64,000 nucleotides of DNA from Bryobacterales bacterium (GCA_965238045.1 CBDEGU010000011.1:640402-704401); one strand, 5' to 3'. Shown: positions 10,374 to 62,970, numbered from the stretch's first letter. Translations and numbers: made by a program. The notes: generated by a model from the sequence alone, not told the origin.

Positions 10374-10415
10374 GTATATAGAGGCGAGGGAATCTCGAAA
10401 AGATTGCTGTATATT

Positions 10416-12679: not shown

Positions 12680-12703
12680 CCCATGGAAGGTCCGCGGCTT
12701 TAG

Positions 12704-14450: not shown

Positions 14451-14541
14451 CTAGGGACGGTTAGCCGATTTTCGCATCGGAAGACCGCTGCGTGTCGTCG
14501 ATTTCTCGAACGCGCGAAACAAGTGGCTGTCCGCGAGCGGG

Positions 14542-16904: not shown

Positions 16905-17036
16905 ACCACCAAACGGGTCCAGCCACAGTCATGCCCACCCAGGTGGCGTAATCCGGCAGCGTCGCGAGCGCGGGTTTGTGGCGCTCTCCACGCTGCCGGG
17001 CGCTGGGGGCGTTTGGGCGATCGGGAATAGGCTGGC

Positions 17037-48157: not shown

Positions 48158-48309
48158 CAGCCGCTAGCGATCGGCCAGCAAGGGCGCCGGCTCGAACTTT
48201 AGAACGCCCCCGAATCGCAGTCGCGACCTGCGCGGTCTTGGCGGATTCGATGCCATCGGGCGGGATCGGAAGAGTGGAGTGGATCCCTGAGGCGAGGCCA
48301 AGAAATTAG

Positions 48310-48485
48310 CCCGCTTTTCTCACCACGTGGCGAAGCGAAGTGCGTGAGAGGTCTGTCAGTACGAGGCGCGCGCCGCTTGACGAGCGCAGGCGTACTTGAC
48401 AGTACGTTGAGCACGGCGAGCAAGCGCAACGAAGTAATGGCGGGCCTATCATGTGCTTCGGTCGTCAGGTGGTGAGAAATGCGGG
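48310..48485 (+). mobile_element. MITE copy C (176 bp), IS1380-type termini
   Basis: CCCGCTTTTCTCACCACGTGGCG...GTCAGGTGGTGAGAAATGCGGG, flanked by TTAG at 48306-48309 and 48486-48489. Confidence 0.8.
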
Positions 48486-48544
48486 TTAGGGACGTGTTGC
48501 GGTCGAGTGAAGAAGCATAGCGTATCCAACCGGTCTTCGGCTCG

Positions 48545-49336
48545 GTGTCCGTGTCGCGGATCGAAGAAGCCGATGTACAGTGGTTCTTGACGAAGGCCGG
48601 AACGACGCTCGCGGGGAAGTGGGTCCGGAATCTCCGGGCGCACCTGAGAGGCGTTCTTTCGTCGGCGGAACACTGGGGCTGGCTGAAAGCGGGCGCGAAT
48701 CCGGCGCGAGGCCGTCTGCGGCTGCCGGCTGTCGTTCCGGTCCGGCCGAGACGCGCGTTGCCGCCGGAGGATCTGCGTAAGCTCCTCGCGGTTCTCGCCG
48801 AGCCTTGCCGAACAGTCTTTCTTCTCACGGTGCTCTCGGATATCCGCAAGGGTGAACTTGCCGCCTTACGCTGGGATGACGTGAAGCCCGGCTATATCGT
48901 GATCGACGAAGCCGAGTACCGGGGAGAACTTAACAACCCCAAGAGTCACCGCTCGCGGCCGGAAATCTCGATCGGACCTGCGGTCCAAAAAGCGCTCGAA
49001 ACTTGGCGCGGCCGGACGCGATTCGGCACGGATCGGGATTTCGTATTCTCCATGGTGACGAATAGCCCGATCGAGCTTCATGACGCTCTAGCACGGCACG
49101 TCCGGCCCGCTTGCGAAAAAGCGGGAGTGCCTCGTATTTCGTGGCATGATTTGAGACACATGTGCACAACGTGGGCCCGGAAGTATGGGGTCCAAGCCGG
49201 GAGCATGCGAGAAGATCTCGGGCATGCGTCCGTTTTGATGACTCTCGGCGTGTACAATCACCCGGCGGATCGAATGGAAGCCGGAGCGCGGGTCGAGCGT
49301 TACGGTTACGCCGGTGTGACGGTCCTCGTGGCCTAA
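48545..49336 (+). pseudogene. Tyrosine recombinase (phage-type integrase), N-terminally truncated or decayed
   Basis: Catalytic-domain motifs SDIRKGEL (Arg), WHDLRH (HxxR) and LGVYNH (Tyr). Only 263 aa from a GTG. The same frame upstream reads ...SSEEA-TAG-RIQPVFGS, which still looks integrase-like. MITE C lies 55 bp upstream. Confidence 0.7.
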
Positions 49337-49357: not shown

Positions 49358-49381
49358 AATGGAACCTAGGAATGGAACCTA
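49358..49381 (+). repeat. Two direct copies of AATGGAACCTA (candidate recombinase arm-type or regulator sites)
   Basis: AATGGAACCTA occurs at 49358-49368 and 49371-49381, between the integrase stop and the tRNA-His 3' end. The core 9-mer TGGAACCTA recurs at 54823-54831 and 54884-54892. Confidence 0.5.
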
Positions 49382-49417
49382 AGGACGAATCGGCACCACG
49401 TAACTTACTGAAACAAA

Positions 49418-49467
49418 TGGTACTGGTGCCCAGAATCGAACTGGGGACCTCCTGATCCACAATCAGG
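49418..49467 (-). pseudogene. 3' half of tRNA-His(GTG) (positions 27-76 incl. CCA); candidate att core, no valid 5' half
   Basis: The minus strand reads CCTGA-TTGTGGA-TCAGG AGGTC CCCAG-TTCGATT-CTGGG CACCAGT A CCA (anticodon arm, GTG anticodon, T arm, 3' acceptor strand). The 26 nt upstream cannot form the acceptor stem (ACTGACG vs required ACTGGTG) or a D arm. Confidence 0.7.
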
Positions 49468-49706
49468 TTTAGCACCCCTTTTGCCGTCAGTGACTTAGCC
49501 CTCTTCAAATCATGTAACGGACTTATATACTTGCACTTACCTTGACATTCCCGGACATTCTGCGCATACTGAATGTCAGACAAAACGCGTTAGTTTGCTG
49601 ACATAGTGCTGACACGGAACGGGCCGGAGTGGGCTCGGGGCTTCCTGAATCACCGTCAGGCGTTCTGAAAAATCAGTCTAGCGAGCTGCTGACACGGGGT
49701 GGTGGA

Positions 49707-50894
49707 ATGCGACTGACTGAGCGAGTTATAGACCGGCTGACGCCGCCAAAAAGCGGCTACTTGATCGCGTGGGATGAGGACCTGAAAGGGTTTGGCGTAC
49801 GGGTTACGGCGGCGGGTGCTAAGAGCTTCATTGTTAACTACCGGACGAGGGACGGGCGGCAGCGCCGGGCGACAGTCGGACGGTTCCCCGCCACAAGCGC
49901 GACGGCGGCGCGGCTACGTGCTCAGGAGCTACTCGCGGGCATAATGCTCGGTTCTGACCCCGTCAAGCAGGAGCAGGAGCGACGCAGCGAGATAACGCTC
50001 GGCGAACTCGTGAACAAGTACGAGGAAGAGCACCTGTCCGAACTGAGCAGCGGAGACGAAGTGGTCCGCTATTTGCGATCGGACGTTTTGCCTTGCCTGG
50101 GCAGGAATAACAAAGTGTCTGCCGTGACGCGCCGGGCGATCAAAGACATGGTGAAAGCCAAGGCACGGCGGGCGCCGGTCGCGTCGAACCGGCTACTCAC
50201 GCACGTGAAGGGAATGTTCGCGTGGGGTGTAGATGAAGAGTACATTCAGGGCGATCCGGCGGCGGGGATAAAACGCTTGGGCGCTGAAGAAACACCCCGC
50301 ACTCGCTTTCTCTCAGAGGAGGAGATATGGAAGGTCTGGGATGCTCTGCCGACGGCTAAGAGGATGTCGAACAGCGTTCGGTCGGTACTGCGGCTCATCT
50401 TGGTTACCGGACAACGGCCCGGCGAAGTGGCAGGGATGCGGTGGGATGAGATCGACACGAAAAGCGGCTGGTGGCGTCTGCCAGCCGAGCGCACGAAGGC
50501 CGGGCGGGAGCACCATGTACCGTTATCGCGGCTGGCGCTGGCCGAACTCGAAACAAGAGGTAGGGGGGAGGGGTGGGTTTTTCCTGGAGTGGCTGGCCAC
50601 ATCTCGCGACTGGTGCTGAGTCACGCCGTCCGGCTCAACCGGGAACACTTCGGCGTCACAGCTTGGACACCGCATGACCTACGGAGAACGGCTACCACTC
50701 ACCTGGCGAAGCTGAAGGTAGACCGGCTGATTATCAAGCTCATCCTGAACCATAGCGATAAGTCTGTGACCGCAGCCTACGACCAGCATTCTTACGAGGA
50801 CGAGAAGCGCCAGGCACTCGCGAAGTGGGACCGCAAGCTCCGGGCGATCATCACCGGCGACGCTGCGCCGAAGGTAGTGGCGATCGATGGCTGA
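49707..50894 (+). CDS. int: Tyrosine recombinase, P4-type integrase with DUF4102 arm-binding N-terminus
   Basis: MRLTERVIDRLTPPKSGYLIAWDEDLKGFGVRVTAAGAKSFIVNYR is the DUF4102 signature. Catalytic motifs TGQRPGEV, HDLRRT and AAYDQHSY. The ATG at 49707 is preferred over the track start at 49629. Confidence 0.88.
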   Translation: MRLTERVIDRLTPPKSGYLIAWDEDLKGFGVRVTAAGAKSFIVNYRTRDGRQRRATVGRFPATSATAARLRAQELLAGIMLGSDPVKQEQERRSEITLGELVNKYEEEHLSELSSGDEVVRYLRSDVLPCLGRNNKVSAVTRRAIKDMVKAKARRAPVASNRLLTHVKGMFAWGVDEEYIQGDPAAGIKRLGAEETPRTRFLSEEEIWKVWDALPTAKRMSNSVRSVLRLILVTGQRPGEVAGMRWDEIDTKSGWWRLPAERTKAGREHHVPLSRLALAELETRGRGEGWVFPGVAGHISRLVLSHAVRLNREHFGVTAWTPHDLRRTATTHLAKLKVDRLIIKLILNHSDKSVTAAYDQHSYEDEKRQALAKWDRKLRAIITGDAAPKVVAIDG

Positions 50895-51213
50895 GAGAAA
50901 AGACGGCAATGTACTGGGCGCGCTCCTGCCCCGGAATCTCTCTAGGATTGAGTCCCGAATCAATGCCATCTCGGCGCGTATCAACGAGTCCGGGGCCAAC
51001 TTACAAAACGCCTTCCCCAGCGAGTGGCTACAGCTAGTTGAGGAACCCCTCAGACTTGCCCGCCGGAGGCCGTGGGCGTGTCGAGAGCTTGAGCACGGGG
51101 GTCCTGGACGAGATCCAGGATGCCATGGTGTGCCCTTCAATCTGTCAATGGTCCGAAGTGTGGAACCCGGCTGGAATCAGTCGGATGGAGAGCCTCGGAT
51201 TCTGGGGTTGTAG
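50887..51213 (+). CDS. Hypothetical protein (weak call)
   Basis: 108-aa ORF whose ATG overlaps the integrase stop by 8 nt. The N-terminal half looks coiled-coil and the C-terminal half is poorly protein-like. Confidence 0.3.
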   Translation: MAERKDGNVLGALLPRNLSRIESRINAISARINESGANLQNAFPSEWLQLVEEPLRLARRRPWACRELEHGGPGRDPGCHGVPFNLSMVRSVEPGWNQSDGEPRILGL

Positions 51214-51293
51214 CTGATAAGGGATGTGTCTAGCGGGGCGATCCCGAAGCCGTTAAGTGAGTTAATCATCACAGTGCCAGACTAGGCCGACGG

Positions 51294-51449
51294 ATGGGTA
51301 TCACGATCCGCGATATCGTTTGGGAGACTCTGGCCGAGCGCTTGGAGGATGCCCAGTTCAATCAGAAGATCCTACGGGAGATCCGAGAGAGGTTGAAATC
51401 CGGTCGGTCCGTCAGTGGCCGGGTGCCATCCCCCAAGGGGTCTGATTAG
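51294..51449 (+). CDS. Small hypothetical protein, 51 aa (weak call)
   Basis: ATG at 51294, TAG at 51447-51449. Encodes MGITIRDIVWETLAERLEDAQFNQKILREIRERLKSGRSVSGRVPSPKGSD. Below the ORF-track cutoff and has a weak RBS. Confidence 0.3.
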   Translation: MGITIRDIVWETLAERLEDAQFNQKILREIRERLKSGRSVSGRVPSPKGSD

Positions 51450-51479
51450 TGCCGGAGCATTCAAGAGGAGATCCGTGTC

Positions 51480-52151
51480 ATGACCTACGAAAAACACTTG
51501 AAGCAGTTGATACGGCAGCTCCCAACGGCATTGCGTAAGAACATCGAGCAGGAAATAAGCAAGGCCGACGAGCGTGCAAGTGAGCTGGCCCTCTCTGCAT
51601 TTGACCAGGCAGAGTCTGTACGGGACCTCCGCAAGAACTGGTGTTTTGCGACGAACGAAGTCACCGACAATCCGGGCCTAACTCTGGCAGCAGAAGGTCT
51701 CGGAAGCGCGATTCTTCACATCGTCAACGTTTTGGCGGAGGCTTTTTGGATCAGTGGAGAGCCAATTGAGAATCTTGCTCGGCATCTAGGCAGTCGAGAT
51801 TGCAGCATCGCGTCAGTCTTGTTGGAAAAGCCCGATCTGAAACCACCAGAGGCATATCGATCCGTCTTGTTGCCCAGTGAAATGATCCGCCAAGAAATCG
51901 AAGCCTGGTTGGTTCGGGCTGTGCGCCACAAGAAAGAACGAGATGCAATCACTGGACGTGAAGCTCGACTATTGGAATGTCTACGACGTCGGGGCTGCAC
52001 AATGACGGCCATCTACACCGCAGCCAAGGTGGATAAGGGCGACTTTTCGAGATGGCGAAGAAAACAACCCGGAGATGACAGATACATACCTGACAGTTCC
52101 ACGAAAGCGGAGAACATCGAGGCAGTTCTCGACGGCAGGAGACTCCTCTAG
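51480..52151 (+). CDS. Hypothetical island protein
   Basis: 223-aa ORF with the good RBS AAGAGGAG. Lower GC than the core genes. The C-terminal segment REARLLECLRRRGCTMTAIYTAAKVDKGDFSRWRRK may be an HTH. No family recognised. Confidence 0.55.
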   Translation: MTYEKHLKQLIRQLPTALRKNIEQEISKADERASELALSAFDQAESVRDLRKNWCFATNEVTDNPGLTLAAEGLGSAILHIVNVLAEAFWISGEPIENLARHLGSRDCSIASVLLEKPDLKPPEAYRSVLLPSEMIRQEIEAWLVRAVRHKKERDAITGREARLLECLRRRGCTMTAIYTAAKVDKGDFSRWRRKQPGDDRYIPDSSTKAENIEAVLDGRRLL

Positions 52152-52488
52152 CCTGAGCACTAGACTTCCTTCCCCTATTTTTCCGAGACCAAACACTTTG
52201 CGGATGACACCCGCCTCAGAGTGGGACGATCGCCGCTCCGTGGCCTACTTGCGCTCCGCTGCCGACAGGTCTTGACGGGCTTGCTGCGGTTCTCGACACT
52301 TTCTCTTGCTTCCTACTAGCTATTTGATTGGATCAAGACCCACTACATAGAGGCGCTGACCGACTCGGCGCATGTAAGCGGTCAGCGTGGAATCCCAACT
52401 TCTCCCCAAGAAAGCCAACGTGCCAACATTGCAGGCCAACATAGTCGGTTTGCTGAAATGGGTTCGAGTGGCGACGGAGGAGAATTCA

Positions 52489-52713
52489 ATGGCGGCATCT
52501 AGCATCCGGCTTCCAGTAGCCGACCTCGTTTCAGAAACCGATTTTGCAGCCCTCGTCGGCAAATCCCTCCGCACAGTTCGCCGCTGGCATGTTGAACGCA
52601 GCGGCCCACGGCGGACGGTCCTCGGTCGGTCGGTTTTCTACAGTCGAGCAGCCATCGAAGACTGGCTTAAGGAGCGCGAAGAACCTTGCAGGAGACCAAA
52701 TCATGAGCGATAA
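52489..52713 (+). CDS. AlpA/excisionase-family helix-turn-helix protein
   Basis: RBS GGAGGA precedes the ATG at 52489. The 74-aa product contains ETDFAALVGKSLRTVRRWHVERSGPRRTVLGRSVFYSRAAIEDWLKE, the typical HTH_17/AlpA pattern. Confidence 0.7.
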   Translation: MAASSIRLPVADLVSETDFAALVGKSLRTVRRWHVERSGPRRTVLGRSVFYSRAAIEDWLKEREEPCRRPNHER

Positions 52714-53755
52714 GCGGCATAGCGATAAGCGGCATTTCAGCTTGAATACGTACCCACGTCCCAAATCCGATTTCTTCGATGCCGACGACGAACCCGCCAT
52801 CGAGGTCATCCCCGGCATACTTCGGCAAGGTCAAATCGCGATACTAGCCGGTGCCTTCGGCGTGGGCAAGAGCCCCCTCATACTCGATCTTGCGGTACGT
52901 GTGACGTTGGGCCTGGAGTGGGGAGATGAGGACGTGAAACAAAGACCAGTCATCCTGTTTGATTTCGAGAGCACTCGTGCTCAGATCATTCGCGGTGTGC
53001 GAAACGTTTGCAAGCGGCTGCACGAACCCCTCCCGGCGGTTCCCGACGAATTCGAGCCTATCCTCTCTCATGACCTGCCCCCGCAACCTGGTGGAGTCAA
53101 GTATTCGCGACCAACTGCGCCGACCGAGTGGCTCGCAAGTGCTCTCAAGCGCAAGCCAGACGCCCTCGTGGTAATCGATCCCATCGAGTTGATGTTCCAA
53201 TTTGACAAGTTAAAAGGCAAGGACATTCTCGATCTGTACGCCGGTTTGAGGGATCTGCTTCGCAAATTTCCCGAGGCATCTATACTCTCGACCTTCAACT
53301 TGCGAAAACGCGACCGGAAGACACGTAAGGCGAACCTGCTTCTGGAATCCCGTGATTGGCTCGATGAGATCTCCGGCTCCGCCGATATCGTAAACAGGTG
53401 CGACGTTCGGTTAGGGTTTGATTTCGGCGATGGCGATGGGGAGGAGAACGATTTGCGCATCCTCAACGGTGTCCGGCGCGGGGAACTGATGAATCCGATT
53501 TTGCTTAGGCCAATCGGCGATAGTCCGGAGGAGATGGCAGGATTCGAGCGCGTGCCGCCAGAAGAAATCGAGCTTCGCCGAGCGCTCACAACTCGGCAAC
53601 TTGAGTACTGGAGAATCCTACCCAGACGATTTCGCTTCGGCAAGGTGGCCAGTCGCGTCGTTCCAAAGTCGAGCCTTCATCGCCTCATTCAGAAAGCCAT
53701 ATCACTGGGCCTCCTCAAGAGGGATAAAACAACCTACTGCAAGGTGTGCTCCTGA
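52703..53755 (+). CDS. RecA-fold AAA ATPase (AAA_25/RepA-like; candidate replication initiator-helicase loader of the island)
   Basis: Walker A context GQIAILAGAFGVGKSPLILDLA and Walker B-like ALVVIDPIELM. RBS GGAG precedes the ATG at 52703, which overlaps the AlpA-like gene end. Confidence 0.65.
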   Translation: MSDKRHSDKRHFSLNTYPRPKSDFFDADDEPAIEVIPGILRQGQIAILAGAFGVGKSPLILDLAVRVTLGLEWGDEDVKQRPVILFDFESTRAQIIRGVRNVCKRLHEPLPAVPDEFEPILSHDLPPQPGGVKYSRPTAPTEWLASALKRKPDALVVIDPIELMFQFDKLKGKDILDLYAGLRDLLRKFPEASILSTFNLRKRDRKTRKANLLLESRDWLDEISGSADIVNRCDVRLGFDFGDGDGEENDLRILNGVRRGELMNPILLRPIGDSPEEMAGFERVPPEEIELRRALTTRQLEYWRILPRRFRFGKVASRVVPKSSLHRLIQKAISLGLLKRDKTTYCKVCS

Positions 53756-53803
53756 CACCCGGACTTTTGGAACTATTGATGTTAAGTATTGTTATTACAA
53801 TTG
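53756..53803. repeat. AT-rich segment with TGGAAC motif; left part of the iteron region split by IS1595 copy 2
   Basis: ttttggaactattgatgttaagtattgttattacaattg lies immediately after the ATPase stop. Confidence 0.45.
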
Positions 53804-54793
53804 GATGGGTATTCACTTGACTCAGGTGACCACAAGATGTAGGATCTTGGAAAATGGAAGATTATCCGCGGAATCTGGCCGAGGTCGAGGCGCGTTTCGC
53901 CAACGAGCAGGCCTGTCGGGAGTATCTGTGTCAACTCCGCTGGCCGGAGGGTTTTCGTTGTCCGCGATGCGGGCATGACAAAACCTGGGCGGTACGCACG
54001 GTGCTGCTTATTTCAAGACACCCGCAAACCGCTCCAGAGCTGGTTTCGAGCCATGTGGTGGCTCACCAGCCAGAAGAACGGGGCCAGCGCACTGGGATTG
54101 CAACGAGCGTTGGGCCTGGGCAGCTACAAGACGGCCTGGACTTGGTTGCACAAGCTCCGGCGCGCTATGGTACGGCCCGGACGCGACCGGCTCAGCGGGC
54201 GCGTTGAGGTTGACGAGACCTACTTAGGAGCCCTGGAGGAGGGCGTGCGGGGCCGCCAAACCGACGCGAAAGCGCTGATTGCAGTAGCGGCCGAGGAAGA
54301 TGGCGCAGGCATCGGACGAATTCGGATGCGCACGATTCCGAACGCCTCCGGGGACAGCTTGATGGCCTTCGTTGGCGAGTCGGTCGAACCCGGCAGCGTG
54401 GTCCACACCGACGGTTGGCTGGGTTACGGGCCACTCGAAAGCGACGGCTATCGCCACGAGGTGAGCTACCTGGACGGGCAACCGGCGCGGGCCTCGGAAC
54501 TGCTCCCCCGCGTTCATCGCGTGGTGTCGTTGCTGAAGCGCTGGATACTGGGTACGCATCAAGGAGCCGTCAGCCACGAGCATCTCGACTCCTACCTCGA
54601 CGAATTCACCTTCCGCTTCAACCGCCGCAAGTCCAGAAGTCGAGGCAAGCTCTTCTACCGCCTGGTGCAGCAGGCCGTCGCCGTCCAACCGGTGCCCTAC
54701 AAGTCGCTGGTCGGAGGCACCGCAACACATGCTACGGACAACCACAACATGTAGGGGCTATTTCAAAATACCTGAGTCAAGTGAATACCCATC
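53804..54793 (+). mobile_element. IS1595-family insertion sequence, copy 2 (990 bp, defective, 8-bp TSD TACAATTG)
   Basis: Same inverted repeats as copies 1 and 3. TACAATTG occurs at 53796-53803 and 54794-54801. It is 47 bp shorter than the other copies and has scattered substitutions. Confidence 0.9.
53854..54754 (+). pseudogene. IS1595-family transposase, frameshifted by a 47-bp internal deletion
   Basis: Track ORFs 53854..54207 and 53975..54754 together cover the transposase. Sequence between GTGCTGCT and TTTCAAGACAC (49 nt in copy 3) is replaced by TA, removing the second CxxC pair (CASCGH) and shifting the frame. Confidence 0.85.
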
Positions 54794-54801
54794 TACAATT
54801 G

Positions 54802-54935
54802 TTTAAGTGGTTCCAACCGGCCTGGAACCTATGTGGAATCTGAAACCGGATAGCCGGTAGGTTCCAGTTTAGTTCCACCCACATGGAACCTATTATATCA
54901 TTGATTATTAAGGGGATAGCCAAATAGTTCCACAG
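54802..54935. repeat. Cluster of GGAAC/GTTCC-core short repeats (candidate iterons/origin or multi-operator)
   Basis: GGTTCC 54809, TGGAACCTA 54823, GGAATC 54835, GGTTCC 54860, GTTCCA 54872, TGGAACCTA 54884 and GTTCCA 54928, interspersed with AT-rich stretches (tattatatcattgattattaa). Confidence 0.5.
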
Positions 54936-54993
54936 TACCGGGTGACTAGGGCGATGTTCTGGCGTGGTTGGCAGACAGCGCAGGTGATAACAG

Positions 54994-55380
54994 ATGAAAG
55001 GCCACGGCGACAAACTCAGCAGAAAGCGCGAACAGGCAATCAGCGCCCTCTTGACCGCTCCCACAGTCGGCGACGCGGCGGAAGTCGTCGGCATCGGCTC
55101 AAGCACGCTTCATCGCTGGCTACATGAAGTTGAGTTTCGAGCAGCTTACCTCATGGCCCGGCGAGAGATTGTCGGACACACAACGAGTATGCTCCAGCAA
55201 GCATCCGCGCGCGCGGTAGGCACGCTGATCGACGTGATGGAGGATGAACAGAGCCCTCCGAGTAGTCGCGTCGCTGCTGCACGAGCCGTGTTGGATCTTG
55301 CGTACCGGGGTCTGGAAATGGAAGATCTTTCGGCGCGGCTCGATCGTCTGGAAGGGATGCGAGGAGTTATTGCCCGATGA
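54994..55380 (+). CDS. Hypothetical HTH protein (phage/terminase-small-subunit-like N-terminus)
   Basis: 128-aa ORF. REQAISALLTAPTVGDAAEVVGIGSSTLHRWL is an HTH-like segment. Followed by a gene whose start overlaps its stop (ATGA). Confidence 0.5.
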   Translation: MKGHGDKLSRKREQAISALLTAPTVGDAAEVVGIGSSTLHRWLHEVEFRAAYLMARREIVGHTTSMLQQASARAVGTLIDVMEDEQSPPSSRVAAARAVLDLAYRGLEMEDLSARLDRLEGMRGVIAR

Positions 55381-55592
55381 ATGCTAAACGTCGTATCGAG
55401 CGGCTAGAGCGGACCAGCAAGGTAGGCAATGGGGATGGGCCGCTGCCGTTGCATGTTGTGGCGACGATCATGGAAGCGGGAGACGCCGGGCGGGACTTCA
55501 CTCCGGCTGAGCGACGCGAACTGGACCTGTACGATGGGGCGATCAAGCGCATTGTGGCCAGGGGGGCTCAGGTCGATAGCGAGCACGAGTGA
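55377..55592 (+). CDS. Hypothetical small protein
   Basis: 71-aa ORF translationally coupled to the upstream gene. Begins MNAKRRIERLERTSK. Confidence 0.4.
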   Translation: MNAKRRIERLERTSKVGNGDGPLPLHVVATIMEAGDAGRDFTPAERRELDLYDGAIKRIVARGAQVDSEHE

Positions 55593-56136
55593 AAAACCGC
55601 GTGGGCCGAGACTGGGCTGCGACTCGCGATTAGACGGTCTTGCGATGGTCCAGCGGCGCAACGCCGTTAATTCGTTTAACGCTGCGTGGGGTCAAACCTG
55701 CTCGCCCGGCTGGAGAATCCCTTCCAAGCGGTCCGACGCCTTGTTCTTCCAGTTGATTCGCTGAGCGACGGCCTTGCGCAGGAAGCATCTCCCGACTTGG
55801 CCTTAGGTCCACCCTTGACAGCTGGCCGATGGCTCATGGACCGGCGGCTGTTCGGTCACATGCTGCGTCGGATCGGAGCGCCGTTCAGCCTGGTCAATCA
55901 ACGTCTGTGAACGGGCGGACGAGTCTTGGGGCCTATCGGCGGAGGTGATCTGCAGGGCTCAGCGCGGAAAGACGTGGTATTCATGGCAGCGCGGGTGTAT
56001 ACTGTCGCCGTACCAGGGTCAAAATGGAAATCCTGGTCAAGGCGACAAGAGCCGATGCGGATAAGGGTCGAGCGAGAACTCAGGGGAACCGCATTGGGCT
56101 GACAAGGCAGGCAGGGCACACCGGAGGAGTTTTTGC

Positions 56137-56445
56137 ATGCACATGAGCCAAGATCCAGAAGGCTGGTCCGATAGTGGAAAGTGGTGGATGGATCTTCTGA
56201 AGTCCGCGATTATATTTTGCGTGGCGACGATAGTCGCGATCTGTATCGTCGCCGACATAGAAGACAAAAGAGAGGTCCGGAGAGTTAAGGAATCTACTCT
56301 TCTTACTCTCAGACAGCAGACCGTACCCGACTTCGTCAAAGCGGCGGTGCATTATGAGACCGCTTCGTACATAGCCTACACGGAACTGTATCAATGGGTG
56401 GGTGTTGAACCAACGCAGGCAATGCGTGCCTATGAATCCGTTCAT
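56137..56445 (+). pseudogene. Membrane-anchored hypothetical protein, 5' part (interrupted by the nested IS1595/IS21 insertion)
   Basis: Has a TM helix LLKSAIIFCVATIVAICIVADI. The native frame ends at 56445 (..AYESVH). Track ORF 56137..56484 then reads into the IS (DGYLLDSGDPKM). Confidence 0.65.
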
Positions 56446-56495
56446 GATGGGTATTTACTTGACTCAGGTGACCCCAAGATGTAGGATCTTGGGCG

Positions 56496-57443
56496 ATGGA
56501 AGATTATCCCCGGAATTTGGCCGAGTTCGAGGCGCGTTTCGCTAGCGAGCAGGCCTGTCGGGAGTATCTGTGTCAACTCCGCTGGCCGGAGGGTTTTCGT
56601 TGTCCGCGATGCGGGCATGACAAAACCTGGGCGGTGCGCACGGTGCTGCTGCAGTGTGCAAGCTGCGGGCATCAAGCTTCGGCGACAGCAGGCACAATCT
56701 TTCAAGACACCCGCAAGCCGCTCCAGAGTTGGTTTCGAGCAATGTGGTGGCTCACCAGCCAGAAGAACGGGGCGAGTGCATTGGGATTGCAGCGGGTGTT
56801 GGGCCTGGGCAGCTACAAGACGGCCTGGACTTGGTTGCACAAGCTTCGGCGCGCTATGGTGCGGCCCGGACGTGATCGCCTCAGCGGGCGCGTTGAGGTT
56901 GACGAGACTTACTTAGGAGCCCTGGAGGAGGGCGTGCGGGGCCGCCAAACCGACGCGAAAGCGCTGATTGTAGTAGCGGCCGAGGAAGATGGCGCCGGCA
57001 TCGGACGAGTTCGGATGCGCACGATTCCGAACGCCTCTGGGGACAGCTTGATGGCCTTCGTCGGCGAGTCGGTCGAACCCGGCAGCGTGGTCCACACGGA
57101 CGGCTGGCTGGGATACGAGCCACTCGAAAGCGACGGCTATCGCCACGAGGTGAGCTACCTGGACGGGCAACCGGCACGAGCCTCTCAACTGCTCCCCCGC
57201 GTGCATCGCGTGGTGTCGTTACTGAAGCGTTGGATACTGGGTACGCATCAAGGAGCCGTCAGCCACGAGCATCTCGACTACTACCTCGACGAATTCACCT
57301 TCCGCTTCAACCGCCGCAAGTCCAGAAGCCGAGGCAAGCTCTTCTACCGCCTGGTTCAGCAGGCCGTCGCCGTCCAACCGGCGCCCTACAAGTCGCTGGT
57401 CGGAGGCGCCGCAACACGCGCTACGGACAACCACAACATGTAG
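56496..57443 (+). CDS. IS1595-family (ISXO2-like) DDE transposase
   Basis: 315-aa ORF differing from ORF 2683..3630 at one residue (GGAATRA vs GGTATRA). Confidence 0.9.
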   Translation: MEDYPRNLAEFEARFASEQACREYLCQLRWPEGFRCPRCGHDKTWAVRTVLLQCASCGHQASATAGTIFQDTRKPLQSWFRAMWWLTSQKNGASALGLQRVLGLGSYKTAWTWLHKLRRAMVRPGRDRLSGRVEVDETYLGALEEGVRGRQTDAKALIVVAAEEDGAGIGRVRMRTIPNASGDSLMAFVGESVEPGSVVHTDGWLGYEPLESDGYRHEVSYLDGQPARASQLLPRVHRVVSLLKRWILGTHQGAVSHEHLDYYLDEFTFRFNRRKSRSRGKLFYRLVQQAVAVQPAPYKSLVGGAATRATDNHNM

Positions 57444-57601
57444 GGGCCATTTCAAAATACCTGAGTCAAGTGAATACTGAGAACGGCGGAGCGAAACTAG
57501 ACCATAGAGCGGCGATTCGAAGCCGCTTTTGGGCGGAGTAAAAGTAGACCGCCCGAGTGGTCCAGCGAACATTCCTGTGGTGTTTGTGGGACACGAGAGG
57601 G

Positions 57602-59101
57602 ATGTATCGCGTGGAGCTATACGCTCAAGTACGGCGCAGTGTCTTTGTCGAAGGTCTGAGTGAACGCGAGGCCGCCAAACGGTTTGACTTGGCGCGAGGG
57701 ACGGTGCGCAAGATGTTGCGCTACGCCACTCCACCAGGCTATCGGCGGCGCCAACCAGCGAGGAGACCGAAGCTGGATCCCTTCGCCGGAATCGTCGATC
57801 AGCTCCTCATCGACGATCAGGAACGCCTGAAGAAGCAACGCCACACTGCGAAACGCATCTTCGACCGCTTGCGCGACGAGTACGATTTCACCGGCGGCTA
57901 TACGATCGTCAAGGATTACGTTCGCGACAAGAAGCTGGGCGGGCAAGAGATGTTCGTGCCGCTGGTGCATCCGCCGGGCGATGCCCAGGCCGACTTCGGC
58001 GAAGCACTGGTGGTCATTGACGGCGTACAGCGCAAGGCGCACTACTTGGTTGTCGATCTGCCGCACAGCGATGACGCTTTCGTAAAAGCTTTCCCCGCCG
58101 AGACGACGGAAGCCTTTTGCGAAGGGCACAACGCAGCGTTCCGGTACTTCGGCGGCGTGCCACGCAGCATCCTCTACGACAACACGACCTTGGCGGTGGC
58201 GAGGATCCTGGGCGACGGCAGGCGCAAGCGGACCAGGGTGTTCAGCGAGTTGCAGTCGCACTATTTATTCGCCGATCGTTTCGGGCGGCCGGGCAAGGGC
58301 AACGACAAAGGAAAGGTGGAAGGGCTGGTCGGTTATGCACGGCGGAATTTCATGGTGCCGATCCCGAGGTTTCCAAGCTGGGAAGCGTTCAACCAGAAGC
58401 TCGAAGCCCAGTGCCTCAACAATCGTGAGCGGCGCTTGCGGCGGCATACCGAAACGATTGATGAACGTTGCGAGCGTGACCGCCAAGCATTGCTGCCCTT
58501 GCCGCCCACGCCCTATGACGCCTGCGACAAACGCACCACGCGGGTTACATCGCTGTCATTGGTGCGCTATCGCACCAACGACTACTCGGTACCCACACGC
58601 TACGGACATCGCCAGGTGTTGCTGAAAGGCTACGTCGATGAAATCGTGATCTGTTGTGGCAGTGAAGAGATCGCGCGCCACCGGCGCAGTTACGAACGCG
58701 AAGAGTTGATCTTCGATCCGCTGCATTACCTGGCGCTGCTGGAACGCAAGACCAACGCGCTCGATCAAGCGGCCCCACTGGCGGGCTGGGAACTGCCCGA
58801 ACAGTTCGCGTGCTTGAGACGTTTACTCGAAGCGCGGTTGGGCAAGGAGGGCAAGCGCGAGTACGTGCAGGTATTGCGATTGCTGGAGGACTTCCGATTC
58901 GAGCACGTTGCCGCGGCGGTGCGCCAAGCCTGCGAGTTGGGAGCGATCGGCTTGGATGCTGTCAGGCACTTGGTGCTGTGCCGCATCGAGCAACGGCCGC
59001 CGCGCTTGGACCTGACGAAGTATCCGCATCTGCCGGCAGCCCAAGTGGAGCAAACCTCCGCCGCGGACTATCTGGCGCTGCTGGCGCAAGGAGGGGGATG
59101 A
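57602..59101 (+). CDS. istA: IS21-family transposase IstA
   Basis: N-terminal HTH (GLSEREAAKRFDLARGTVRKMLRY), DDE region (ADFGEALV...VDLPHSD...DNTTLAV) and typical ~500-aa length. The ATG at 57602 is preferred to the GTG at 57557. Confidence 0.88.
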   Translation: MYRVELYAQVRRSVFVEGLSEREAAKRFDLARGTVRKMLRYATPPGYRRRQPARRPKLDPFAGIVDQLLIDDQERLKKQRHTAKRIFDRLRDEYDFTGGYTIVKDYVRDKKLGGQEMFVPLVHPPGDAQADFGEALVVIDGVQRKAHYLVVDLPHSDDAFVKAFPAETTEAFCEGHNAAFRYFGGVPRSILYDNTTLAVARILGDGRRKRTRVFSELQSHYLFADRFGRPGKGNDKGKVEGLVGYARRNFMVPIPRFPSWEAFNQKLEAQCLNNRERRLRRHTETIDERCERDRQALLPLPPTPYDACDKRTTRVTSLSLVRYRTNDYSVPTRYGHRQVLLKGYVDEIVICCGSEEIARHRRSYEREELIFDPLHYLALLERKTNALDQAAPLAGWELPEQFACLRRLLEARLGKEGKREYVQVLRLLEDFRFEHVAAAVRQACELGAIGLDAVRHLVLCRIEQRPPRLDLTKYPHLPAAQVEQTSAADYLALLAQGGG

Positions 59102-59862
59102 TGGCGAGATCGAAACTTCTGCTCGAAGCGCATTTGAAAGCGTTGCGGCTGCCCACCTTCCTGCGAGAGTACGACAAGCTGGCGCGGCAATGCGCCGCCG
59201 AGAGCCTGGACTCGAGGAGCTTCCTGCAACAACTCTGCGAACTGGAACTGCTCGACCGTGAACAGCGGGCCGCCGAGCGTCGCATCAAGGCCGCGAAGTT
59301 TCCCGTGACCAAGAGTCTGGACACTTTCGACTTCCTGTCCCTGCCGGCGTTGAACAAGAAGCTGGTGTTGGAACTGGCGCGCTGCGAGTTCATCGACCGC
59401 CGCGAAAACGTGCTGGCACTGGGTAATTCCGGCACGGGCAAGACGCACATCGGCTTGGCGTTGGGACTGGCGGCTTGTCAGCGCGGCTATCGAACACGCT
59501 TCACAACAGCGGCGGCACTGGTCAATGAGCTGCTCGAAGCCCGAGATGAACGGCGCTTGCTGCGGTGTCAAAAGCAGTTGGCCAAGCAGGATCTGCTGAT
59601 CGTCGATGAACTGGGCTACGTGCCGTTGTCGAAGACCGGAGCGGAGTTATTGTTCGAAGTGTTTTCCCAGCGCTATGAACAGGGTTCGACGCTGGTCACC
59701 TCAAACCTGCCGTTCAACGAATGGACAGAGGTCTTTGGCTCCGAGCGGCTGACGGGCGCCTTGCTGGATCGGCTCACGCACCACGTTCATATTCTGGAGA
59801 TGAACGGCGAAAGCTTCCGCCTCACCCAGAGCAAGAAGAAGCGGGCTCACTCTTCGGACTGA
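59098..59862 (+). CDS. istB: IS21-family helper ATPase IstB
   Basis: LKALRLPTFLREYDKLA...FPVTKSLDTFDF and Walker A GNSGTGKTHIGLALG, Walker B LLIVDELGY. The start overlaps the istA stop. Confidence 0.9.
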   Translation: MMARSKLLLEAHLKALRLPTFLREYDKLARQCAAESLDSRSFLQQLCELELLDREQRAAERRIKAAKFPVTKSLDTFDFLSLPALNKKLVLELARCEFIDRRENVLALGNSGTGKTHIGLALGLAACQRGYRTRFTTAAALVNELLEARDERRLLRCQKQLAKQDLLIVDELGYVPLSKTGAELLFEVFSQRYEQGSTLVTSNLPFNEWTEVFGSERLTGALLDRLTHHVHILEMNGESFRLTQSKKKRAHSSD

Positions 59863-60050
59863 CCCACCGGCCGCTCGCACGGTTTTCGTGAGACGGCTTC
59901 CACTACGCCTGGGCCGCCCTAAAGGGCGACCTCAGGCTCCGTTCCAGCCGTCCCACGAAAACCGCTAGCCCTTCACCAACTGGTCTACTTTTGCTCCGCC
60001 GAAGTGGTCCAATTTTACTCCGCCCTTGACAGAATACCCATCCCGTTCAT

Positions 60051-60329
60051 TTCCCGGCTTACCTATCTAGTGTGGAGCTAATCAAAGCGAGTTTTCAGCC
60101 CTACCCCACGATCATGAGTGCTGCGAATGAGTACACGAAGGCGATTGACAACTTATTTGGGATCTACGATCGGGTCCGCGATGTCCGCCTCGACGGAGGG
60201 CCTGAAACGTCAATCCACCCTGGGAGGGCTCGAACGGAGTTTGATGACGCAGGTGAGGAAGCCAAAAAGAAACGTGAAGCTCTTGTGGAGGTCATATCGG
60301 AAGTCGTTTATCGAGAGACCGACGGCTGA
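60051..60329 (+). pseudogene. Membrane-anchored hypothetical protein, 3' part (continuation of 56137..56445)
   Basis: Codons from 60051 (FPAYLSS-VELIKASFQ...) are in frame with the 5' part once the insertion and one TSD copy are removed. Includes track ORF 60072..60329. The reconstructed product is 195 aa. Confidence 0.6.
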
Positions 60330-60633
60330 CGACGTATCCAGCCGCCTACGGGCGTGTCCCCGCCAGATTTCCGAGAGGGGGAGGGCCTGGCTCTCCAGAA
60401 ACTGGAGGGCGACCCAGGTCACTAGAAACCCATCCCGCCGTTCTTCTGGATTCCTCAATCTGCTGGCGTGCCTGTTCCGCCGTCAGCAGAGAGACGGCGC
60501 GCCCATCCACCACACCCTCGACCGCTTCAGAGAGATAGTCTCTGTGTGCATTCAGACGCCGGGACGGCGCTTTTTCCCAACTGTTGGTGAACTCCGTGAG
60601 TGCGAGGATGACTCTGAGCAGCCCCGGGACACG

Positions 60634-61215
60634 ATGGACCCGGCGACCGCGAAGATTCTGGCGGATCCGGAGCAGACGGCTCGACTAGAGCAAGAGACCC
60701 AGGACTGGTTTAGGAATGAGATCCTGCCGATGTGCGAGGACAAGACGGTGATGCTCGGCGGCGAGAAGTCAGGTGCGCTGAGCGAATCAGCAGAAGGGAT
60801 CGAGACGACTATCCCGGCGATCGACCGGAGACTGGTACATGAAGATCGCGAGCGGTTGGCCGGCTCACATAACCGATATCTCTCCTTAACACCCCTGAAT
60901 AACCCTGTGCTGGGTTCTGTCGATGCTGCATCGAGTGATATTCAGCCGATGTTTGACGCCGCTTCTGAGGGCCCAGAGCTGTTCCAGAAGGGGCGTGCAA
61001 TGGCGCTTGCTAGCAAGACACTGGGCGAAACGGTTTGGTTCGTGGCCGACGAAGAGGACGCCCAGCTCTTGCGTGAACCGAGAGGCACTGTTTACACCGC
61101 ATCTGAGGCTGTATCCGTGGCCACCGTAGCCCGTCCGGAGACGATCGCCGAGATTCACCGATGGAAGCGTGCGCTCAACGCCACGATCACGGAGGCTCAC
61201 AAGCTTTCGGAGTGA
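60634..61215 (+). CDS. Hypothetical island protein (start uncertain)
   Basis: This is the C-terminal part of track ORF 60118..61215. The 5' part of that ORF overlaps the previous gene and is Arg-rich and poorly protein-like. The first ATG after that is at 60634 (MDPATAKILADPEQ...). Confidence 0.4.
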   Translation: MDPATAKILADPEQTARLEQETQDWFRNEILPMCEDKTVMLGGEKSGALSESAEGIETTIPAIDRRLVHEDRERLAGSHNRYLSLTPLNNPVLGSVDAASSDIQPMFDAASEGPELFQKGRAMALASKTLGETVWFVADEEDAQLLREPRGTVYTASEAVSVATVARPETIAEIHRWKRALNATITEAHKLSE

Positions 61216-61227
61216 ACCACGATTTCT

Positions 61228-61536
61228 ATGCACAGTCGTCACACCAGCCTCGAGCAGCGCCAACGCTGGATGCGCGAGCAGCAACCTACCCCTGTGCCCA
61301 ACGGTCTCGATTCGAACTCTAGCGGCAATCTGGTCGCATTCGAGCGGCACTATCGGGCAAGAGAACTCGCGGAGATTTGGAGTCTCGACGAGAGCACTGT
61401 CCACCGGCTTTTCCAGGACGAGCCCGGCGTGCTGAAGATCGGCCGCTCCGGGCACCGTGATGGTAAACGGGACTACACTTCGCTGCGCATACCAGAGTCG
61501 GTGGCCGTGCGAGTTCATCAAGAGAGGTCTCGGTGA
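61228..61536 (+). CDS. Excisionase-like helix-turn-helix DNA-binding protein
   Basis: YRARELAEIWSLDESTVHRLFQDEPGVLKI...YTSLRIPESVAVRVHQE matches the excisionase/HTH_17 pattern. Its stop overlaps the integrase start (4 nt). Confidence 0.6.
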   Translation: MHSRHTSLEQRQRWMREQQPTPVPNGLDSNSSGNLVAFERHYRARELAEIWSLDESTVHRLFQDEPGVLKIGRSGHRDGKRDYTSLRIPESVAVRVHQERSR

Positions 61537-62702
61537 CAAGTCGCACTGAGGTCGATCGATCCCGTAAGATATTCGGCATGTTGAATCTCTCGCGGCGTCA
61601 CACACCGAAATGCCCGCATCGCAAGAAGGGCCGAGCCCACATCAAGTGTAAATGTCCGATCTGGGTTGACGGGGAGCTGCATGGCAAGCGCTTTCGCCGC
61701 TCAACGGGGGTACGGGACTGGCAGCGTGCGCTGCGGAAGGTCGCTGCCTGGGAAAACCATGACGGTCCGAGGCCAAAGCGGGTGTGCGAAGCTCTGGAAG
61801 CTTTCTTGCGTAGTTGCCGGGATCTCGCGTCAGCTTCGGAACGAAAGTATCGAAACGTGTGCAACCAATTTCAGCGGTTTTGCGAAAGCCAGACTATCAC
61901 TACGCTCGCTGAACTGACAGTAGAGGATCTCGATCTCTACTGTGCCAGTCGCGAACTGAGTCCGTTGAGTTCCCAGAAAGAACTTCAGACCCTCCGCCAG
62001 ATCTACAGCTTCTGGATGGATCGTCGGTGGATCGCGGACAACCACGCACAGAAGATTAGACCACCAAGGGGTGCCAGACCCAGGCCGGTAGATCCATATA
62101 CACCTGCCGAAGTCAGTCAACTTATCACCGCGTGTGACAAGATCGGTCGGCAGAACTACGAGCGTTTGCGTGCTCGGGCGATGGTACTAATGATGCGATA
62201 CACGGGCCTGCGGATCTCTGACGTGATCACACTTTCCCGCGATCGTGTCAGAGACGGTTATCTCCAGCTCCACACGCAAAAAACGGGTGGACACGTGCTG
62301 TTGCCGATGCCATCCGACTTGCGGGAAGCTCTGGAGACACTGCCAATCCCCAAGGGAGCCGACCGCGGGTGTCCGTTTTTCTTTTGGAACGGAAAGACGT
62401 CACGTCGCCAAGTTGTGACGATGGCACACAAGAGTCTTGACTCCGTCTTCCGCAGAGCAGGTGTCGAGAATGCTCGATCCCATCGGTTCCGACATACGCT
62501 TGCCACCGAGATTCTCACCAAGGGAGGAACCGAGCAGGACGTCGCGGACATTCTCGGAATTAGCCCAGCGATCGTACGAAAACACTATGCGAAGTGGAGC
62601 CTTGGCAGACAGAAGCGGGTGATCAACATCATGCGTGCTGTGCACGGTACTCGCGGCTACGAGGAGTTTCAGGAACTGCCCACGTCTGCTCAAATCCAAT
62701 AA
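61533..62702 (+). CDS. int: Tyrosine recombinase/integrase adjacent to tRNA-Ser
   Basis: RYTGLRISDVITL (Arg), HRFRHTLATE (HxxR) and VRKHYAKW (Tyr). The stop lies 69 bp from the 3' end of tRNA-Ser. Confidence 0.85.
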   Translation: MTSRTEVDRSRKIFGMLNLSRRHTPKCPHRKKGRAHIKCKCPIWVDGELHGKRFRRSTGVRDWQRALRKVAAWENHDGPRPKRVCEALEAFLRSCRDLASASERKYRNVCNQFQRFCESQTITTLAELTVEDLDLYCASRELSPLSSQKELQTLRQIYSFWMDRRWIADNHAQKIRPPRGARPRPVDPYTPAEVSQLITACDKIGRQNYERLRARAMVLMMRYTGLRISDVITLSRDRVRDGYLQLHTQKTGGHVLLPMPSDLREALETLPIPKGADRGCPFFFWNGKTSRRQVVTMAHKSLDSVFRRAGVENARSHRFRHTLATEILTKGGTEQDVADILGISPAIVRKHYAKWSLGRQKRVINIMRAVHGTRGYEEFQELPTSAQIQ

Positions 62703-62770
62703 TACGTGGCACGAATTTGGCACACAGACTGACGGGCGTTCGTAACTTACTGATTCTAAAGGTAAACCAG

Positions 62771-62860
62771 TGGCGGAGAGAGAGGGATTCGAACCCTCGG
62801 TAGAGTTACCCCTACACACGCTTTCCAAGCGTGCGCCTTCAGCCGCTCGGCCATCTCTCC
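62771..62860 (-). tRNA. tRNA-Ser (anticodon GGA)
   Basis: The minus strand reads GGAGAGA-TG-GCCGAGCGGCTGAAGGCG-CACGC-TTGGAAA-GCGTG-long variable arm-GAGGG-TTCGAAT-CCCTC-TCTCTCC-G-CCA. This is a full cloverleaf with a class II variable arm. Confidence 0.9.
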
Positions 62861-62970
62861 GTCTAGGGTGGGCGCTGCTGGCGGACATGCGCCGGCACGC
62901 ATCTTAGCTCATTGTAGTTCCTGCCGCCGGCACGGAGCAAACCGGCGGCAAGCGGCTGACCACGCGGGGT

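Follow-up and report, generated by a model that had tools for sequence, protein, structure and literature searches.

Nearly all catalogued phage-inducible chromosomal islands (PICIs), more than 99.9%, come from Proteobacteria and Firmicutes (PMC10085698). Their origins are built of iteron sets that flank an AT-rich spacer just 3' of the rep gene (PMC6092414). A literature search found no paper that pairs phage satellites with Acidobacteria. Here, we describe a module at 49.4–55.7 kb of a 64,000-nucleotide stretch of DNA from a Bryobacterales bacterium (GCA_965238045.1, CBDEGU010000011.1:640402-704401; the window), which a first-pass annotation had read as a phage-satellite-like module of the PICI or P4 type. 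On balance, we favor the interpretation that it represents the left and middle portions of a small integrative element of the phage-satellite type, PICI-like and encoding a small terminase subunit (TerS), inserted in a tRNA-His gene. The most fitting description of the window copy is that of a degraded PICI-like satellite of the TerS type. The family to which it belongs is most likely large, unnamed, and widespread, occurring well beyond the bacteria with known satellites.

All convincing genes in the module lie on the + strand. They encode, in this order, a P4-type integrase (IntB), two or three ORFans, an AlpA-type helix-turn-helix (HTH) protein, and an AAA_25 ATPase (Rep), followed by an origin-like stretch split by an insertion sequence (IS), a TerS-like gene, and a 71-aa gene. 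With the IS left out, 4.9 kb separate the integrase start from the last stop, which ends the TerS pair. The first-pass annotation had claimed a DUF4102 P4-type integrase, an AlpA/excisionase-type HTH overlapping the gene of a RecA-fold ATPase with a Walker A motif, an AT-rich repeat stretch right after the ATPase gene, and a terminase-small-subunit-like HTH in a pair of coupled small genes; each is present at or within a few bases of where it had been placed and is borne out by the data below. The order to which it had drawn attention (int, alpA, rep, and an origin 3' of rep) agrees with that of Gram-negative PICIs, including one-directional transcription and iterons flanking an AT-rich spacer (PMC6092414).

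Four of the five PICI core components (criteria in PMC10085698) have a counterpart in the module, namely integrase, AlpA-type regulator, replication module, and small terminase, and the origin and gene orientation expected of PICIs (PMC6092414) are matched as well. The tyrosine integrase at one end with a specific attachment site corresponds to IntB and an attL made of the tRNA-His 3' half and arm repeats. The regulation module (an alpA, merR, or stl homologue) corresponds to a 74-aa HTH_17/PHROG 66 protein with a predicted regulatory role. In place of the primase-replicase module there is a replicative-helicase-type Rep with a winged HTH (wHTH), and no primase domain or gene was found. The putative origin, interrupted by IS1595, contains seven TGGAACYW repeats around an 18% GC spacer, and the small terminase homologue, as in pac-type members, is recognized by homology, synteny, and fold. 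For the fifth component, capsid morphogenesis or interference, no module open reading frame (ORF) gives a match in Pfam, PHROGs, or PADLOC; this component is missing in SaPI-type members (Staphylococcus aureus pathogenicity islands) too (PMC10085698).

Other classes of element fit less well. The label 'P4-like' holds for the integrase type and AlpA and fails for everything else: no module ORF matches the psu-delta-sid operon, epsilon, or the alpha primase-helicase in PHROGs or Pfam. Capsid, portal, head–tail adaptor/connector, and large terminase subunit (TerL), which capsid-forming PICIs carry themselves, are all missing from the window module. Relaxase, coupling protein, and type IV secretion genes, as expected of integrative conjugative or mobilizable elements, have no Pfam match in the module ORFs or in L049, an intact relative. 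No phage structural genes were found in 49.4–62.8 kb with Pfam or PHROGs; the right attachment site (attR) is not in the window, and intact relatives measure 8 and 16 kb. The label 'soil lineage' is unsupported, as the locus occurs in coded-organism runs and in runs labeled seawater, marine sediment, and hydrothermal vent metagenome.

The left attachment site, attL (49399–49468, − strand), consists of the 3' half of a tRNA-His(GTG), from the anticodon stem-loop to CCA, plus ~19 nt of 3' flank. The module start given by the first-pass annotation, 49468, needs the qualification that it falls at the inner edge of this partial tRNA. ARAGORN calls a tRNA-His at 49418–49491; a functional gene was rejected on the basis of an Rfam score of 27.1 bits against a gathering score of 29, a missing D arm, and two acceptor mismatches. 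In contigs from four public runs (all public runs were consulted as assembler contigs), identity is confined to ~49400–49467 and ends at the anticodon loop. Inside the element follow a promoter-like site at 49542–49570 (+ strand; TTGACA-17-CATACT, a consensus match only, with 10/12 positions in a consensus scan) and three TGCTGACA repeats at 49596, 49607, and 49687 (spanning 49596–49694, + strand). Three of the four TGCTGACA matches in the window cluster here, and these candidate arm-type sites are probably bound by the N-terminal arm-binding domain of the integrase.

IntB (49707–50894, + strand) has arm-binding, central, and catalytic domains and is apparently intact. It matches Phage_integrase (1.3e-24), Arm-DNA-bind_3, the former DUF4102 (3.9e-15), and Phage_int_M (3.5e-8) in Pfam and the PHROG 1 integrase family at 2e-67, and its translation contains the catalytic motifs TGQR, HDLRR, and AAY. 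An IntB homologue (2e-36) occurs in L033, a Thermodesulfobacteriota element of 16.2 kb that extends from a partial tRNA-Thr, ending at the anticodon loop, to an intact tRNA-Thr. The motif is the same inside both ends of L033 (TGCTGACA...TGCTGACAC; as a 21-nt motif, TGACATATTGCTGACACGA): it is located just upstream of the IntB homologue and again beside the intact tRNA-Thr at the other end. The partial tRNA-His, the three TGCTGACA repeats, and IntB reproduce the left-end anatomy of L033, and we therefore assign attL to this site, with crossover at the anticodon loop. A metagenome scan with IntB returned only relatives of ≤35% identity, none with a linked TerS-like gene, so that IntB cannot serve to diagnose the family.

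In runs X2, X3, and X4, an arm motif lies 26–28 nt from the tRNA-His flank in a junction of the attR or attP type. Its order is unknown DNA, arm repeat, 28 nt, 18-nt tRNA flank, and tRNA-His block; X2 and X3 have it at locus depth and X4 has a variant. Judged by this arrangement, it is what attR or attP of such an element should look like. The X2/X3 junction and its flanking sequence are not in the window, and exact 10-mers, blastn-short, and motif scans of the window found no second tRNA-His block, second TGCTGACA arm, or copy of the X2 right end. A metagenome pattern scan for an attR-type junction gave no match. The tRNA-Ser further downstream was considered as an IntB target and rejected, as no repeat of it exists elsewhere in the window.

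The AlpA/Xis-type HTH protein (52489–52713, + strand, 74 aa) matches PHROG 66, 'excisionase and transcriptional regulator', at 7e-8 and HTH_17 at 1.5e-5 (25.6 bits, just under the gathering score of 27). Its gene overlaps that of the ATPase by 11 nt and is translationally coupled to rep; the product is probably an activator and/or excisionase. An HTH_17 gene precedes rep in six related elements, and the counterpart in the alpA position of L010, a close relative described below, matches Phage_AlpA.

Rep (52703–53755, + strand, 350 aa) is composed of a RepA/DnaB-like AAA_25 helicase core (residues ~30–285) and a C-terminal winged helix (~290–350). The core matches AAA_25 in Pfam at 3.7e-19, with the Walker A motif GAFGVGKS seen in the translation, and in the AlphaFold2 (AF2) model (pLDDT 85) residues ~290–350 form a helix–helix–helix–hairpin arrangement. 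A PDB sequence search with Rep gave nothing significant, and the fold search alone was informative. The best Foldseek matches are structures of the hexameric replicative helicase RepA of RSF1010 (1nlf, 1olo, and 1g8y; E 4e-11, target TM-score 0.65–0.70), followed by DnaB, Rad51/DMC1, and KaiC, with no partition or conjugation ATPase at the top. The modeled fold and the adjoining repeats are compatible with Rep being, as is probable, an iteron-binding replication initiator-helicase.

We found 35 Rep homologues, all metagenomic. Four are in islands beside a tRNA gene, where an integrase is present and an HTH_17 gene directly precedes rep, one is in an island with an adjacent Prim-Pol/PriCT gene, and two are in phage-like contigs (L004 and L005). 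In two more distant elements (L028 and L049), the AAA_25 core is fused to a DnaG zinc finger, a Toprim domain, and a C-terminal wHTH. Four islands with homologues of Rep and/or the TerS-like protein contain defense-like cargo (GmrSD, DUF6602, Mrr_cat, SLFN_AlbA_2/HATPase_c_4, a 1,451-aa AAA_11/AAA_12 helicase, and ddrB-ParB giants).

The origin-like stretch begins immediately after rep. Its left part (53756–53803) comprises an outer inverted-repeat arm, one TGGAAC iteron, and half of the AT-rich spacer, and its right part (54794–54944) the rest of the spacer, six TGGAAC(C)TA iterons in both orientations, and the other outer arm. Without the IS it measures 191 bp at 42% GC, against 60.6% for the window; a 33-bp core of 18% GC has one iteron to its left and six to its right, and a 22-nt inverted repeat brackets the whole. 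TGGAACYW occurs 15 times in 64 kb against 4.7 expected, a count reached in none of 100 shuffles, and seven of the 15 copies fall in 53768–54932; seven iterons in 191 bp compare with ~0.015 expected by chance. Short repeats likewise crowd the region just 3' of rep in seven related elements, and their sequence varies with the Rep allele: CGGAGTR in L010 (~12 copies and AT-rich blocks), GTTCAC and TGAAAC in one element each, GGTTCCA in three, and AAACCGGGTAA in another. By its repeat content and base composition, the region behaves as a replication origin would.

An IS1595-family element (53804–54793, + strand) separates the two parts. It has perfect 24-bp inverted repeats, an 8-bp target-site duplication (TACAATTG), a split transposase, and a 47-bp internal deletion, and it is 94–95% identical to an intact copy at 56446–57477. 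Because it sits in the AT-rich core, the origin in the window is very probably dead; the corresponding origin in L010 has no IS1595. The copy in the window looks disabled, with an IS in its origin and its right end not in the window. It is also probably immobile, because IS1595 splits the origin, the window has no right arm site or intact tRNA-His, and ISs and a second island lie downstream.

The 128-aa TerS-like protein (54994–55380, + strand) has an N-terminal three-helix HTH and a long helical hairpin in its AF2 model (pLDDT 91). It matches PHROG terminase-small-subunit families at 2e-6 to 4e-3. A tblastn search of 50,697 phage records gave 20 matches, of which 16 are 'Streptococcus satellite phage Javan...' records, three are fecal scaffolds of 6–11 kb, and one is a true phage. 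The best Javan match has 42.7% identity over 91% coverage (E 3e-19), and in these satellites the homologue is located after a repA/primase gene and before a small overlapping ORF, as in the window. In bajarodcaudo virus 2, a phage with a circular 30.7-kb genome, the homologue and an 80-aa ORF are immediately upstream of the large terminase and portal genes, and in MT836267 the homologue overlaps a Terminase_3/Terminase_3C gene (2e-34) by 4 nt. The latter record (MT836267.1, 1–11458) has 11.46 kb and a 124-bp terminal repeat and encodes an integrase, a cI-like HTH repressor, Bro-N, an AAA_25 Rep, the TerS-like protein, and TerL; too small for a tailed phage, it may be a TerL-encoding satellite.

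A PDB sequence search with the TerS-like protein gave nothing significant. The best Foldseek match in the PDB is 2ao9, a Bacillus cereus prophage phBC6A51 protein with nine chains (probability 0.94–0.98, E 0.03), and the Sf6 gp1 small terminase is also among the matches. Among named viral fold models that match it, the commonest label is 'terminase small subunit'. The case for a TerS stands because modest profile and fold scores agree with synteny, and we propose that the 128-aa protein is a small-terminase analog that would mark element DNA for the large terminase of a helper.

The partner gene, a 71-aa ORF (55377–55592, + strand), overlaps the TerS-like gene by 4 nt and has 88% DNA identity with its counterpart in L010. 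A small ORF follows the TerS-like gene in nearly all relatives (38 related loci); the sequences cluster only among close relatives, beyond which no homology was detectable across the family. A terminator-like hairpin (55652–55678, + strand; 7-bp stem with 5 GC pairs and a T-rich tail) closes the one-directional block, and the homology with the L010 variant (blastn block 54981–55653) stops at it.

Several points weigh against our interpretation. The TerS assignment is based on weak profile and fold scores (PHROG ~1e-6; Foldseek PDB E 0.03) and on synteny in two elements, and a pattern and profile scan did not find the family in IMG/VR viral contigs. Neither a capsid-remodeling gene nor an Stl-type repressor was found in the module, and Rep has no primase domain. 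No helper phage was identified, with positions 1–45 kb of the window not screened for a helper prophage. Excision, replication, and encapsidation are predictions from the sequence and from assembler contigs. attR is missing from the window, where the int–rep half and the TerS half may have been linked secondarily, and assembly chimerism at IS copies is conceivable. In addition, at least one group of streptococcal satellites, in S. thermophilus, is mobilized by competence and not by packaging (PMC13376191).

Some of these points would suit a phage-independent, integrative, and replicative island, plasmid-like or mobilizable, that spreads, if at all, by transformation or conjugative mobilization and whose 128-aa protein is a regulator or DNA-binding accessory. 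The lack of recognizable helper, capsid-remodeling, and interference genes is what such an island would show, TetR-like regulators are also among the fold and sequence matches of the 128-aa protein, and related islands carry defense-like or other cargo, as generic genomic islands do. However, searches of the window module and of L049 (intact, 8 kb) turned up no relaxase, coupling protein, or partition gene. In two independent elements, a homologue of the 128-aa protein takes the place of TerS, directly upstream of TerL; the closest database relatives of this protein come from entries submitted as satellite prophages; and its viral fold matches are most often named as small terminases. We consider this explanation unlikely.

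A full HMMER scan with the TerS-like family yielded 20,400 clusters at 50% identity, 9,867 of them at E ≤ 1e-10. Many top representatives have 260–350 aa and match the profile in two stretches, and these appear to be tandem-duplicated TerS-like proteins. A genome scan identified 33 GTDB loci in at least six phyla (Bacillota, Thermodesulfobacteriota, Pseudomonadota, Myxococcota, Chloroflexota, and Acidobacteriota). Here, the first large ORF upstream encodes a replication protein, with AAA_25 (6 loci), a DnaG zinc finger (5), Toprim_2 (5), DUF3987 (4), DUF927 (4), SF2 helicases (3), or DUF5906 (1), and an integrase lies within a few kb of the TerS-like gene in many of them. The family includes both int-first and int-last layouts. 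L049, from Anaerolineales, measures 7,964 bp between ~100-bp perfect repeats containing tRNA-Leu and encodes an integrase, four small ORFs, a primase–AAA_25–wHTH protein, and the TerS-like protein, with no structural-gene matches. These loci may point to a very large class without a name, of which the window copy would be a degraded member: TerS-encoding phage satellites in which an unannotated TerS-like family follows an exchangeable rep–ori, in tRNA-integrated islands of 8–16 kb across the six phyla named, with the streptococcal satellite prophages as no more than the corner already noticed. We advance this class tentatively, our doubt slightly outweighing our confidence.

The same loci bear on whether the module is what remains of an ordinary temperate prophage after IS activity deleted its late genes (TerL, portal, capsid, tail, and lysis) just downstream of terS. 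IS1595 and IS21 do lie 0.85–2 kb downstream of the TerS pair and the element lacks its right end, members of the Rep family are also present in the phage-like contigs L004 and L005, and TerS-like homologues exist in real phages. Nevertheless, none of the late genes is found downstream of the TerS-like gene in the window or in L010 and L012, and no terminase is encoded among the large ORFs downstream of it at the 33 genome loci (0 of 18 tested). The 4.9 kb from int to the TerS pair without the IS, with rep–ori abutting terS, is far tighter than a prophage early region; a terminator-like hairpin directly follows the pair; and the intact L049 fits 8 kb between its att repeats. A prophage remnant is thus a very improbable origin for the module.

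The region is accessory and mosaic, as the comparison with L010 shows. The two loci are 99.95% identical over 61985–64000 and 99.7% over 60508–61992, and L010 carries the TerS pair at 88% identity. Its AlpA is unrelated to that of the window, its Rep is only 26% identical, and its iterons are different; it lacks IntB, with IS256 in its place, and IS1595 at the origin, and its IS21 is inverted and located elsewhere. According to this alignment, the alpA–rep–ori unit is swapped as a cassette whose edge coincides exactly with the ori/TerS boundary. The region is therefore not core DNA. Conservation as core DNA was one of the findings that the first-pass annotation had named as fatal to its PICI-like reading; the others were grouping of the ATPase with conjugation or partition types and a lack of satellite hallmark genes. 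The reading survived all three: the ATPase lies closest to the RSF1010 RepA helicase and not to ParA- or VirB4-type proteins, and the hallmark search yielded the 128-aa protein, with 16 of its 20 phage-collection matches in deposited Streptococcus satellite prophages.

The mosaicism also raises the possibility that the window joins two satellite-type elements by recombination, IS rearrangement, or assembly error. The left unit would comprise the tRNA-His attL, IntB, the ORFans, alpA, rep, and ori, and the right unit the TerS-like gene, the small ORF, and, further on, a 365-aa ORF, a 102-aa ORF, the integrase IntC, and tRNA-Ser. L010 pairs the TerS unit (88%) and the IntC/tRNA-Ser unit (99.7–99.95%) with another alpA–rep–ori and no IntB, its homology beginning at 54981. 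Run X2 has attL–IntB–rep at locus depth without the window TerS region or most of the IntC unit, and its attR/attP-type junction is not in the window, where attR for IntB is also missing. Four members with the layout 'rep - TerS - small ORFs - int(+) - tRNA(-)' fit an IntC-anchored element. On the other hand, X2 coverage is only ~2.6x, which makes its absences weak evidence, and X1 unitigs agree with the window wherever they can be placed. Moreover, the order int, (unknown), alpA, rep, TerS, small ORF is found intact on one strand in four elements (L028, L033, L041, and L049), and for this reason we take the gene order of the window as native. We regard a chimera as a serious possibility, albeit a rather doubtful one; it concerns the structure and history of the locus, not its nature, and is therefore compatible with a satellite-type element. 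These alignments fit two histories, a native element from IntB to TerS minus its right end and a recombinant of a tRNA-His element with a resident tRNA-Ser element, perhaps with assembly effects at IS copies.

In the mechanism we propose, IntB recombined an attP carrying the tRNA-His 3' half with the chromosomal gene, crossing over at the anticodon loop as the anatomy and the L033 comparison show; the partial tRNA (49399–49468) and the TGCTGACA arm sites are what this event left on the left side. If the element works as Gram-negative PICIs do, a helper phage would activate the AlpA-like HTH, and this protein in turn would bring about excision and expression, with transcription presumably running in one direction from the promoter near 49550 to the hairpin at 55652. 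Rep would bind the TGGAAC(C)TA iterons, melt the 18% GC spacer 3' of rep, and replicate the excised circle; as no primase is encoded, priming would have to come from the host or the helper. The TerS-like protein would then oligomerize on element DNA and recruit the helper TerL, so that satellite DNA enters helper capsids, with the small coupled ORF as a possible accessory in the packaging step. The element thus probably takes over the DNA-packaging motor of a helper phage; helper dependence, packaging redirection, and AlpA-driven induction are what we infer from the known satellites.

Three ORFs lie between IntB and the AlpA-like gene. The 51-aa ORF (51294–51449, + strand; GC content at third codon positions, GC3, 0.73) and the 223-aa ORFan (51480–52151, + strand) have no match in Pfam, PHROGs, PADLOC, or NCBIfam. 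A search of 5.8 billion proteins returned no homologue of the 223-aa protein but itself, and related elements do not keep it; the protein has a possible C-terminal HTH, seen by eye, and could be a regulator or accessory gene. A defense or interference role, which had been suggested for these ORFs, is unsupported by PADLOC. The third ORF (50887–51213) has weak coding statistics (GC3 0.62), and it is doubtful that it is a real gene.

Downstream of the TerS pair follow a high-copy repeat, the intact IS1595, IS21, and a second integrase island beside a good tRNA-Ser. The repeat (55872–56145), the second very high-copy short repeat of the region, reaches a depth of ~15,000 in run X1, and its core (55982–56037) recurs inverted beside IS21 in L010. 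The intact IS1595-family copy (56446–57477) encodes a 315-aa transposase with DDE_Tnp_IS1595 and zinc ribbon domains in Pfam; IS1595 word depth in public runs is 1,500–20,000. It is directly followed by IS21 (57529–60025, istA/istB), which is 99.8% identical to the inverted IS21 at another site in L010. The island at tRNA-Ser(GGA) (60118–62860) contains the 365-aa unknown ORF, the 102-aa ORF, IntC, and two TGGCAC repeats before the tRNA, and it is 99.7–99.95% identical in L010. IntC (389 aa) has SAM-like and catalytic domains and is split by IS256 in L010.

Upstream of attL, a third tyrosine recombinase gene, intA (48545–49336, 263 aa), ends ~60 nt from the tRNA-His block. Only a catalytic domain is recognized in its product, which is distantly related to IntB and IntC, and the gene is probably 5'-truncated. 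Between the intA stop and the tRNA-His block, outside the element, lie two exact copies of the Rep iteron motif ATGGAACCTA (49359–49381), which may have been left by an older tandem element or may be Rep sites close to att. The 13-mer CGTAACTTACTGA occurs at 49399–49411 and 62741–62753, just 3' of the tRNA-His fragment and of tRNA-Ser; on the tRNA strand it resembles what we take to be an IHF-type WATCARNNNNTTR site. Further upstream, a ~180-bp unit (48307–48488) has 27-nt terminal inverted repeats and many internal skip joints. In four public runs its word depth ranges from 10,000 to 40,000, compared with ~13 for the locus around it, and it has no Rfam match; it is a very high-copy hairpin repeat or one resembling a miniature inverted-repeat transposable element.

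Should islands built in this way prove to be real satellites, phage parasitism and gene transfer by satellites would extend to many environmental phyla, and the TerS-like family would be a simple marker for finding them. The swap of rep–ori cassettes between near-identical strains shows active evolution within the family. As a probable fossil, the window copy is itself of limited direct value; intact relatives of the L049 and L033 types offer concrete constructs for tests of replication and packaging redirection.

Among known systems, Gram-negative PICIs of the EcCICFT073/PmCI172 type (Fillol-Salom et al. 2018, PMC6092414) are similar in having int at the left end and all genes rightward, an AlpA-type regulator before the replication gene, and an iteron/AT-rich origin immediately 3' of rep. 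Some members have a terS homologue, structural and lysis genes are absent, and allelic alpA and rep cassettes are exchanged, as in our element. In contrast to these PICIs, the window Rep is a 350-aa RepA-like AAA_25 helicase with a winged helix and not a Pri-Rep primase-helicase, no capsid-morphogenesis gene of the ppi/cpm type or Rpp gene is recognized in the window element, and the host is neither an enterobacterium nor a member of the Pasteurellaceae. The window copy, known from its sequence, also differs in lacking attR and having an IS in its origin.

The Javan Streptococcus satellites share the 128-aa protein (27–43% identity, E down to 3e-19) in the same slot, downstream of repA/primase and before a small overlapping ORF. 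In these records it is annotated only as 'hypothetical protein', and a TerS role is likewise putative there. The logic of a satellite-encoded small terminase without a large one, with rep–ori specificity, is that of SaPI-type elements. Javan satellites, Gram-positive PICIs, and SaPIs differ in having divergent int/repressor genes with rightward operons, 36% GC, and other integrases and replication proteins. With P4 and P4-like islands the element shares a P4-type integrase, with an arm-binding domain and a tRNA anticodon-loop target, and an AlpA/Vis-type HTH; it lacks psu, delta, sid, epsilon, and an alpha-type primase-helicase, has another replication protein and origin, and carries a TerS-like gene, which P4 does not.

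RSF1010 RepA (1nlf, 1olo, and 1g8y) is the best structural match of the ATPase core and belongs to the same Pfam clan (AAA_25, RecA/DnaB fold). Sequence identity is ~15%, and unlike RepA, the window Rep has an additional C-terminal winged helix and adjoins its own iterons. On the basis of the model, it would join the helicase with the initiator role that RepC has in RSF1010. Finally, for the marine virion-encapsidated integrative mobile elements (VEIMEs; Eppley et al. 2022, PMC9618062), recovery from virus particles provides direct evidence that they are encapsidated, whereas the window element is likened to them by gene content alone. The resemblance is a broad one: both are small environmental integrative elements with a tyrosine integrase, AlpA, primase/helicase-type replication genes, and terminase-small-subunit homologues, and both are found outside the classical satellite hosts.

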